A stretch of DNA of 64,000 bases, taken from assembly GCA_963693365.1 (NCBI GenBank), contig CAVNZM010000013.1, positions 6,896,713 to 6,960,712 on the forward strand. The letters are read 5' to 3'. The stretch's first letter is position 1. Each line of letters opens with the position of its first letter. A program made the position numbers and the translations under genes. The notes under the pieces are model-generated. The model ran no database searches. It worked only from the letters and a program-made list of their open reading frames with translations, and was not told where the DNA came from. The stretch comes from Amoebidium appalachense. Its lineage: Eukaryota > Protista > Ichthyosporea. Below are positions 6,301 to 9,300 of this stretch, one piece after another.

Positions 6301-9300
6301 CCCCCCGCCCGCCCCACCCTTATCCCTCCACCCCCCGTTCTCTATGCTATATCCTATTCCCTCTGTTCACATTTCAGACCAGAATCTGTTGGTATCCGTG
6401 ACGGATTTCTTTTTCCTTTCTTTCTTTCTTTCTTTCCCCTCCATCTCTTTTCTCTCTTGGCACGTCTCTGTGCGCATGTCGTCAAATAGGCAAACACGTG
6501 AGATAAGATAAGCAAGATATTGTAATTAGATGACAACGAGACTGACTGACACACTAACTGCAGATGAAAAACACGTCATTGTTGCCTGCTCTCGTCTGAC
6601 GGTCGATAACTGCAGGTAGGTTCGGAAAAGGGGGTGGTCGAGGAGGTGGGGGGGAGTGACGGGGGGAGGGGCTGGGAGGGGTTGCAAAGAGGTATCTTAA
6701 CCTGTTCATACCGGCAAATTTCCCAAGATCGAGATCGACTTGTCATTTTTCGACATGACCAAGTTTGTGCTCTAATGTGAGCATGAAGTTGATAAGAACT
6801 AGCCGAAGAAAAATTGCACGAAAGTAAAATTCATATTCATCCTTCGTTTTGTGCAAAAAAAATGAACTTTGTTCTAGCACACGATACTTTATATATGGTG
6901 TAACTACAAAGGGTGCTTGCCGGCTTGACGAGTCGATGTCGACATCCAAATGCTGTCAATGCAAGCTTCTGATTGGACTATTGTGAAAATGGCAAAATGT
7001 GATTGGCCGGCTCAGTCGACATCCGATGGGAGCTCCAAGATTTTCTCAAAATCTCAAAAGTCACTTTAGAAACAGATATGAAACCATACGAAATAACGAT
7101 ATTTTCCCCAAACTATCTTAGAAACATATGTAGGCAAGACATATACCTGTCGGCATATGCAATTCATTTGAGCTTTTTCTATCGATTTTGAGCCATAATA
7201 GAGTTGTTTAGAGCTGGCCGGCTGCCGGCCAAATCAATTAGTGCCGGCCTGAAGAGGTTAAAGGGGGGGGATTAGGGGCGGGGGGAGGGGGTGGGTGGGA
7301 GGGGAGGGGGGGGGGGAGGGGAGGGGGGGGGAGGGTATGTGGTGTGGTGTTGTCTGTATGGCCGGAAGAAATGCATGTGTGGGGCAAATAGAGTGGGAAA
7401 CGGGTCTGTTTTGTGGAAATGTGTGTGTGTGTGTGTGGGGGGGGGGGGGGGGGGGGGGGGGGGGGGGGGGGGGGAGGGGGTTTGTGTGTATGCGCGGGCA
7501 GGTGTGTGTGTGTGTGTGTGGGGGGGGGGGGGGGGGGGGGGGGGGGGGGGGGCTGGTGGACGGGTGGATGGCCGGGCGAGCCGGTGGGCTAAGCGGACGT
7601 GTGCGCGCTATCTCGGGTGTGTGTGTGTGTGTGTGTGTGTGTGTGTGTGTGTGTGTGTGTGTGTGTGTGTGTGTGTGTGTGTGTGTGTGTGTGTGTGTGT
7701 GTGTGTGTGTGTATGTGAACACGTTTGTGTACCCATCTGTCACGCGTGCCCCTATCCGCGTGTGCATGTGCGTGCCTGTGTGCTATGCTGTTTGTGTCGG
7801 AGGCATGCAAGGTTGTATTTTTTGGACCATGTTACTTTCCTTCCTTCTTCATATGGGCAGGGTTGGGGGGATGGGGAGGGGGGAGGGAGAAAGGAAATGG
7901 GGATGTATTCCGGAGATGATGAAAGGAAGGGGGATAATGAATTCTCGGGGGACTGGTCAATTGTGCAGCAGATAATCCACAGGGATATACAGCAGGGATA
8001 TACAAATGGAGGTTTGAATATTGACAAAAACAAAAATGGCAATAATACTCTATTGAGACATAAGCTCAGGTTTACATGTAGAGTTAAAAAAAATATTATG
8101 ATTATCTCGTGTATAGATAGGTTTACAAATGGCACGAGAAGTACCAACAGAGACAAATTTGAACGATCAAATAGACAGATGGTGGTGCACAACTAGGAAT
8201 ATTAAAATATGGATATGTCAATTGAGATATGCAACCAGATCTATATTCTGAGTGTGGGGTTTTGGCAGGTACTTTTTGCGCGAGTTCTTTCATCCCGATC
8301 ATGCATCTCGAACACTCAACACAAAGGTAACCCCCCCCCCCAGACATCTTTACTTCCATGCAACCGGGCATGGTTGCTCTGTGTCGTGCATCTGTAAGCA
8401 CATACGCGTTTGTCGCTGCACTGCATTAGTCTGCACACACATCTTCACCGTTTTGCTCACCTTGCTTGCATAAGCAACCCTGCTCGTCTTTGATCAAGAC
8501 GGGTTGACCCACCCAAGTTCAGTTGATGCTGCTGTCTGAGTTGGAGCGTCGTATATACGCGGGCTAAGGGGTCGAAACTCAGACGCAATTGATGACTTGG
8601 GCCCTCCCTGAGGATGGGCTCTGCTTATGACGCATACTGTGCGCATGGCTGATGCTGCATACTTGAATGTTTGCCTTTGCATGTGTCCTGCATCATGCTT
8701 CTCATCGTCTATGCGTACTTCGTACTGTGTTCCGCATTCAAACCCCCCCCCCCCCCCCCCCCACACACACACACACACACTCTCTCTCTCTCTCTCTCTC
8801 ACATCCACCGATTTATAGCCCGCTAGCCTGTGCTAAGTCCCCCCCTCCGCGCCTTCCCCCCTTTCCTCTTCCCCCTCCACTCTTCTCTTTCCCTTTTCCC
8901 CTAACGGTTAACGGAAAAGGCAGAAAAATGTGAAAACCTCCCCCCCTCCCCCCCCCTCCCCCCCCCCTCCCGGTTTTGGCCACAAACATAACCCCCTTTT
9001 TTGGGGGGGGGGGGGGGGGGGGGGGGGGGGGGGGGGGGGGCATATCCTTTCAAATGCTTCTGTCCACGTGAGTCCTTGCTTTGTACTGCGAGCCACATCC
9101 TACCCCCCCCCCCCCCCCCCTACCCCTCTCTTCCCCGAAAAAAGGAAAAAGAAAATGAATGAGTAAATTATTTGAATATTTCAAAATAACATATGTACAG
9201 AAAAGCACCTTTAATAATGGCAGATAAAAACAGATAACAAAACTGCCGTGCAGGTTCTATTTCTGAGTGCCGACGAACCCACACCTGCCATGCTTGCTCT

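Follow-up and report, generated by a model that had tools for sequence, protein, structure and literature searches.

A short repeat element lies in the 64,000-nucleotide stretch of contig CAVNZM010000013.1 analysed here (the window), and its 162-nt core is very probably a split fold derived from the hammerhead ribozyme. Self-cleavage of the element is likely, with the cut predicted after the GUU at 8542, and a partner of the Naiad/Chlamys type together with a circular RNA form is somewhat favoured. Overall, the element is probably a split, shuffled hammerhead in a protein-free passenger of a Naiad/Chlamys-type Penelope-like retrotransposon, cut at that GUU. The core was found in three full copies, A at 8469-8630 (+), B at 52937-52776 (-) and C at 63879-63724 (-). 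A and B were identical in 159 of 162 columns (98%), A and C in 125 of 162 (77%). An earlier reading made from the letters alone (the sequence-only reading) had placed the core at these three sites, with coordinates a few bases off for B and C, and had described a structured mobile RNA family of ribozyme or retrozyme character with no match in Rfam; that description held. Its view of the fold as unidentifiable and echoing several motifs did not survive, since all 13 core positions, the three stems I to III as well as the helix that connects stem I with stem II (I-II helix) of a hammerhead were located.

Probable hammerhead core and its split layout

The hammerhead core is defined by C3 U4 G5 A6 N7 G8 A9, G12 A13 A14 A15.1 and U16.1 H17 (PMC3088659; this and the other published accounts are cited for the parts covered). 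The corresponding words in copy A are CUGAGGA (8608-8614), C-GAAA (8573-8577) and GUU (8540-8542). Stem III (9, 9 and 13 bp in A, B and C) is formed by the strand that precedes GUU and the one that follows GAAA, and stem I (4, 4 and 3 bp) by the bases on the 3' side of GUU and those on the 5' side of CUGAGGA. Hammerheads cleave themselves at one site, located after NUH. All 13 core positions, together with N7 and H17, were identical in the full copies (3/3). Two hammerhead words that had been taken for partial echoes are the real core of a permuted hammerhead.

Read from 5' to 3', the stem II strand with G10.1 at its start and one I-II strand come first; block S and then block G follow, and the second I-II strand, stem I and CUGAGGA close the series (Table 1). 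The nearest published layout is type SGC, a non-circular hammerhead permutation comprising HRIMA-1 and its variants (Eckert et al. 2023, PMC10085705). In type-SGC rows an optional U comes after A9, then the G10.1 strand of stem II, a short linker and an I-II strand, and the other I-II strand stands just before stem I (PMC10085705). The group that follows A9 in type SGC sits whole at 8505-8518 in copy A, upstream of block S, and the second I-II strand (8595-8601) lies just before stem I. In sequence, the element equals a type-SGC hammerhead in which an 11-nt linker connects the two free ends and the chain is opened anew between A9 and G10.1. The helix P0 and the hairpin P1 are located at this chain break. 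Stacked together, they would keep A9 and G10.1 a few bases apart, so that the usual active site could form.

Pairing across the three copies agreed with this fold. In the alignment, 98.5% of 134 cells paired and 4 of the 45 pairs changed on both sides, while slid controls gave 30-46%; two-sided changes reached the level of the real alignment in 4 of 500 shuffles. Since A and B are near-identical, these data amount to two independent sequences and are not a formal covariation test. The pairing that the sequence-only reading had reported as kept in the diverged copy was recovered, as were its named helices, including CCCAAGT/ACTTGGG becoming CCCATGT/ACGTGGG and the crossing GACCC/GGGTC. Its closing stem was present, with 2 of 8 pairs broken in copy C, and the fold it listed as complete had overlooked a fourth crossing helix, 8543-8546 with 8604-8607, which is stem I. 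Scored as a nested fold, copy A was more stable than its shuffles (z -3.03), copy C was not (z -0.11) and the whole element was not clearly so (z -1.79). Nested pairing probabilities were near zero for stems I and II and are uninformative, because these stems are pseudoknots. None of 30 variant rows from sequencing runs on 8300-8800 fell on a core position, and the frequent variants lay in the linkers (8511, 8547 and 8602).

The upstream stem II strand (8506-8510) paired in all 15 cells, one of its pairs having changed on both sides. Its 5-bp duplex energy compared with that of the contiguous strand was -7.1 vs -3.5, -6.5 vs -3.5 and -5.4 vs -1.2 kcal/mol in A, B and C. A hammerhead stem II has G10.1-C11.1 directly after A9, with 0-2 extra bases. 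In this contiguous position, stem II would have 2 bp with one extra base or 4-6 weak bp with two, and the strong stem II is that of the upstream strand. The post-A9 bases can pair with block G (6 bp in A and B, 4 bp in C), copies D and J carry an A by which one G-U would become A-U, and CUGANGA-U-G fits the published SGC pattern word. These features suit an ordinary contiguous type-SGC hammerhead in which a two-base insert makes 8617 the G10.1 position and the upstream strand, with P0, forms an off switch that spares host pre-mRNA. Such an arrangement is quite improbable: G-U makes up half of its pairs, copy C breaks the fifth one, its energies are worse in every copy, the register of the published pattern gives a stem II of 2 bp only, and the Naiad records described below lack such pairing.

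Chance occurrence was assessed with a generic hammerhead descriptor that accepts the blocks in any order (stem III of at least 6 bp, stem I of at least 3 bp). It was matched by 13 (A) and 18 (C) of 100,000 dinucleotide shuffles, and in the 128 kb of both window strands only A, B and C matched. A strict descriptor of the split layout was matched by 0 of 120,000 shuffles each; it overstates significance because it was written after the element had been seen, and the generic descriptor is the fair test. The reverse strand of the copies carried no hammerhead blocks. No Rfam match reached the gathering score in the window or E 10 in 8300-8800, and ARAGORN found no tRNA; the sequence-only reading had not recognised the core as 5S RNA, signal recognition particle RNA, small nuclear RNA or tRNA. 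A tRNA-derived short interspersed nuclear element (SINE), with a tRNA head bearing A and B boxes, or a C/D small nucleolar RNA (snoRNA), with C and D boxes at its ends, was rejected on the same searches, and the box words present are internal and belong to the hammerhead layout. An HDV-like (hepatitis delta virus-like) ribozyme, with its nested double pseudoknot and catalytic C strand, was likewise rejected, as the GCUAA word that had suggested it is absent from copy C and Rfam gave no match. A SINE from a tRNA, snoRNA or HDV-like ribozyme, moved by a long interspersed nuclear element (LINE) and bearing hammerhead words by chance, is very unlikely. It could claim a B-box-like word over block G, a box C-like word at 8590-8595, and a LINE-like fragment present twice in the window. 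The shuffle rate of about 1 in 6,000-8,000 per copy argues against it, as do the missing Rfam and ARAGORN matches, the loss of the HDV word in C, the lack of a poly(A) tail and the self-BLAST rows, in which the element and the LINE-like fragment had no sequence in common.

Table 1. Parts of the core in copy A, and copies of the element in the window
Feature	Position	Strand	Remark
Closing helix P0, 5' strand (8469-8476 and 8478-8480)	8469-8480	+	First extra helix at the core break
Hairpin P1	8483-8503	+	Second extra helix; loop palindrome of 6 nt kept in A, B and C
Stem II strand starting with G10.1	8506-8510	+	Half of block C, displaced; arranged as in type-SGC rows
I-II helix, 5' strand	8512-8518	+	
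Block S: stem III strand, U16.1 (8541), U17 (8542), stem I strand 8543-8546	8530-8546	+	Predicted cut 8542/8543, placed by hammerhead numbering
Inserted hairpin, S-G linker	8550-8559	+	Perfect palindromes of 10 nt in A and C, differing in sequence
Block G: stem II strand 8569-8573 (C11.1 = 8573), GAAA 8574-8577, stem III strand	8569-8587	+	
Kink-turn-like internal loop strand (with 8523-8526) and I-II helix 3' strand (8595-8601)	8588-8601	+	
Stem I strand 8604-8607, CUGAGGA (C3-A9) 8608-8614, extra U 8615	8604-8615	+	
Helix P0, 3' strand	8616-8629	+	
Copy A, near full length, between C-tracts	8346-8742	+	Contigs from runs cover 8342-8733; about 20 nt into an intron of the Slo-type potassium channel gene
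Copy B, full core 52937-52776	52665-53058	-	Predicted cut 52864/52863; in a CBS-domain gene intron, sense
Copy C, second subfamily, full core 63879-63724	63640-63908	-	Predicted cut 63808/63807; loose ends
3' end of a further copy just upstream of C	63978-64000	-	At the window edge; partial tandem
Copy D, 5'-shortened	5067-5196	+	Core decayed
Copy E1, 5'-shortened	19657-19772	+	C-tract on both sides
Copy E2, tandem with E1	19812-19900	+	Position 7 altered (CUGAUGA); profile score weak, E 0.41
Copy F, 3' tail only	22976-23064	+	
Copy J, shortened and decayed	48427-48512	-	CBS-gene intron; E 0.018; in the alignment, not in the profile
Possible decayed copy H	3345-3463	+	E 0.0026; doubtful, as a reversed-window control gets 0.0014

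The kink-turn-like loop of 8588-8601 with 8523-8526 fits the kink-turn consensus in copy A and is not canonical in copy C. Palindromes at 8550-8559 (+), 63802-63793 (-) and 8491-8496 (+) are possible dimer contacts.

Copies of the element and its proposed spread

The core is embedded in a longer repeat, some 400 nt in length (8346-8742 in A, 53058-52665 in B), over which B is 95.7% identical to A; this repeat and its further shortened copies had been overlooked in the sequence-only reading. Copy C represents a second subfamily, in common with A and B only over the 3' two thirds of the repeat. BLAST and profile searches of the window also gave the shorter copies D, E1, E2, F and J, the doubtful H and a 3' end upstream of C. 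Most copies have about one common 3' end, a shortened 5' side and a C-tract on one or both flanks, and no poly(A) tail was found on the copies in the window. The combination of 5' truncation, a common 3' end and a microsatellite target is that of Naiad/Chlamys Penelope-like elements (PLEs).

At least half of the sampled words of the element were contained in 20 of 24 sequencing runs listed; no RNA run was on record among those that contained it, and X9 is a putative RNA run. The contigs placed on 8300-8800 came from four runs, 13,315 from X1 (possibly the source of this DNA), 8,502 from X2, 11 from X9 and 6 from X12, and all lay within 8342-8733, the single-copy flank excepted. The numbers from X1 and X2 indicate a high-copy repeat family, and three full cores in 64 kb would correspond to thousands per genome. 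One 163-nt contig from X9 joined the 3' end of the repeat to its 5' start across 60 additional letters, which indicates a full unit of about 450 nt in head-to-tail arrangement. Head-to-tail joints were also present in DNA runs, so the X9 junction is no proof of a circle. Within the window, tandem units were limited to the partial tandems of E1-E2 and upstream of C, with no full dimer.

In the proposed mechanism, head-to-tail transcripts would be cut once per unit after U8542, and a host ligase would close the resulting monomers (about 450 nt), as in non-long-terminal-repeat (non-LTR) retrozymes. The reverse transcriptase and GIY-YIG endonuclease of the partner would copy the circle into (C)n tracts from the fixed 3' end, and copying past the resealed cut site would produce 5'-shortened and partial-tandem copies. 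Near-full copies span the cut site, which implies a template that was uncut or resealed; a circle would explain this.

Near-full copies spanning an uncut site would also be expected if the split fold were real and hammerhead-derived and no longer catalytic, kept as a structural handle for a reverse transcriptase or left as a relic of recent amplification. The opening of the core by two helices, the short stem I, the lack of a cut-site footprint among the shortened copies and the tolerance of sense copies in host introns point the same way. A non-catalytic fold is nevertheless unlikely, as the catalytic positions are kept in both subfamilies, in the variant table and in five distinct Naiad families with unrelated stems.

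A cleaving passenger of a PLE also has several observations against it. The natural inserts known at A9-G10.1 are single bases, as opposed to the two helices here. Covariation within the family comes from two independent sequences, and P0, P1 and much of stem III are invariant. Stem I has 4 bp (3 in C), its change in C depends on the alignment (gap in A2), and a variant at 8605 (23% of X1 depth) had no partner change at 8545 among the rows listed. No shortened copy in the window begins at the predicted cut site, and the contig rows listed for 8300-8800 showed no coverage step there. A Penelope-like open reading frame (ORF) was absent from the 64-kb window. The Naiad comparison was made by eye, and the split layout was seen in no Chlamys record among those listed in unsystematic word searches. 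Finally, sense intronic copies would cut host pre-mRNA if the ribozyme were fast.

More tentatively, and less probably than not, the split core may be the ancestral ribozyme of Naiad/Chlamys elements, of pre-animal age, here driving a protein-free circular RNA of about 450 nt in a microbial eukaryote. Its palindromic loops would make cutting need the pairing of two units and would spare pre-mRNA carrying thousands of sense intronic copies.

Host genes and other features of the window

The introns of a CBS-domain gene, mapped with 12 exon pieces from a transcript-derived protein, contain copies B and J in sense orientation. Copy A begins about 20 nt past a 5' splice site of a Slo-type channel gene according to splice signals and domain hits, and copy C is probably intronic. 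The claim of the sequence-only reading that the family resides in introns was supported to this extent. Residence is best explained by insertion into C-tracts, which are mostly on the sense strand in these introns, and not by an intron-specific role. Every copy is sense to its host gene; C-runs are sense-biased in both host genes (56:16 and 31:7), so this orientation is not special.

The ten best relatives of the CBS protein were 37-44% identical, the eight named ones belonging to early-diverging fungi, an aphelid and Rozella, and the nearest Atlas clusters were eukaryotic. The host is probably a non-animal microbial eukaryote. The gene for this four-CBS protein occupies 43986-55104 (-) and is closest to fungal 'cell separation during budding' proteins. 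The Slo-type potassium channel gene extends over about 1924-24522 (+), and no full-length protein was found for it. Both genes have kilobase introns with many C-runs and CA repeats. A RhoGEF-PH gene with a weak PX match was located at 32377-42124 (-), with 13 exon pieces mapped from P0001; its introns had no copy of the element and no C-run bias (10:13).

A second repeat family was present in two copies (29045-29884 and 58073-58900), 91% alike over 857 bases and without a Pfam match; its decayed minus-strand frame resembles the terminal part of a non-LTR reverse transcriptase. A near-perfect palindrome (94%) of 299 bases at 18254-18552 within the channel gene may be a foldback element or resemble a miniature inverted-repeat transposable element. 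An exact 440-base duplication (46014-46453 and 46749-47188) and short tandem arrays at 56479-56708, 38100-38501 and 26561-26810 reflect either recent duplication or assembly artefact. In addition, a 69-base inverted pair (26873-26941 and 30397-30329), 87% alike, lies between two genes.

Comparison with known hammerheads and Penelope-like elements

The canonical hammerhead types I, II and III do not describe the element, as its order is S, G, C and theirs is circular C-G-S, and Rfam gave no match. It resembles type SGC in the order S, G, CUGANGA and in having the same parts and spacing. It differs in two extra helices and in a block C split at A9/G10.1, which was assumed impossible in the parts covered of PMC10085705. 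The published SGC pattern has an unbroken block C, an S-G linker of 0-8 nt, a G-C linker of 0-15 nt and CUGAUGA (PMC10085705). It failed here on the split block C, on the S-G linker (22 nt in A) and on position 7, which is G. The element also lies in a cellular genome, whereas the SGC motifs come from metatranscriptomes only, as far as the covered parts of that account extend.

Three of 33 published SGC-variant rows match the 7-bp I-II helix of copy A (8512-8518, 8595-8601) and CUGAGGA-U, by kinship or convergence. Since those motifs are metatranscriptomic, and the unit has about 450 nt and no ORF of note, one could envisage an endogenised viroid-like RNA that had an SGC-type hammerhead and entered the genome through copying by a host reverse transcriptase. 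We give this origin very little weight: the opposite strand has no hammerhead blocks, stems I and III differ from the matching SGC rows, the split layout matches Naiad ends and not SGC, and a retrotransposon machinery is indicated by the fixed 3' end and the flanking C-tracts.

Weinberg et al. 2015, which is reportedly cited for hammerheads with additional helices, may bear on the novelty of the split hammerhead. A core opened at A9-G10.1 was not described in the covered parts of the literature searched, including PMC3088659, PMC6765202, PMC6155905, PMC10162972 and PMC13725137. The A9-G10.1 link tolerates a bulged base, U best, in the hammerheads of chrysanthemum chlorotic mottle viroid and of PLEs (PMC3705267, PMC4209133); these have one extra base and canonical strand order, in contrast to the two helices here. 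Pattern scans for relatives gave 15 loci in metagenomes, 4 and at least 120 in viral contigs and 1 in prokaryote genomes, none of them a relative. Over the 140 scanned loci the best profile E was 0.041, the strict descriptor matched 0 of 140 and a loose one matched 1 of 140 (L098, of canonical order and apparently protein-coding).

Non-LTR retrozymes carry type I hammerheads in units of 170-400 nt with <45% GC and are metazoan and intron-depleted (PMC7229834; bioRxiv 10.64898/2026.07.22.740005). They are defined by tandem units of a few hundred bases and by expression as both linear and circular RNA. Like them, the element has a short non-coding unit with one hammerhead, high copy number, head-to-tail junctions and a proposed Penelope-like partner. 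Unlike them, it has a unit of about 450 nt and a split core in place of a type I hammerhead per unit, and in this window it is mostly dispersed in C-tracts. The element would resemble a hammerhead retrozyme in its working, and it is not a member of types I-III, type SGC or the non-LTR retrozymes as defined, because it fails a tested feature of each.

If the reading as a split hammerhead is true, a core opened at A9-G10.1 would add a topology that current patterns and Rfam models miss, and it would explain why Naiad-type elements seemed to have no ribozyme. Retrozyme-like elements would also extend to a probably non-animal microbial eukaryote. The permutation account in PMC10085705 assumes three unbreakable blocks and, in the parts covered, finds no non-circular types in eukaryotic genomes. 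A core point that tolerates insertions would help to build switchable ribozymes.

Naiad and Chlamys PLEs are 5'-truncated and partially tandem, canonical hammerheads are missing from Naiads, many Chlamys target (C)n, and non-autonomous head-to-tail families exist (Craig et al. 2021, PMC8557442, in the parts covered). The hammerhead table of that account has only Chlamys and Hydra motifs, for Naiads a table notes no more than 'HHR_core' or 'HHR_half_core', and the split fold is not described in its covered parts. Unsystematic word searches of the covered part of its Naiad consensus file showed the split order by eye in 6 of the 54 records listed (five distinct, two near-identical), with P0 following A9 and a hairpin immediately ahead of G10.1. 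The stem sequences of these six are unrelated, and their post-A9 bases pair with P0 and not with stem II. One further Naiad record had a canonical-order motif, and a passage with a similar GAAA word in the Chlamys file could not be parsed as a hammerhead. Among the evidence for the fold, the agreement of the split order across families is the strongest. The element here and Naiad/Chlamys elements are alike in the split layout (which six Naiad records have at their 3' end), in 5' truncation and partial tandems, in their microsatellite targets, which are (C)n for many Chlamys, and in non-autonomous head-to-tail families. They differ in that the element is without an ORF and that animals and green algae are both improbable as its host. 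What this window mainly adds concerns host range, target and junction: new here are a host that is probably not an animal, (C)n targeting and a head-to-tail junction of unit length.

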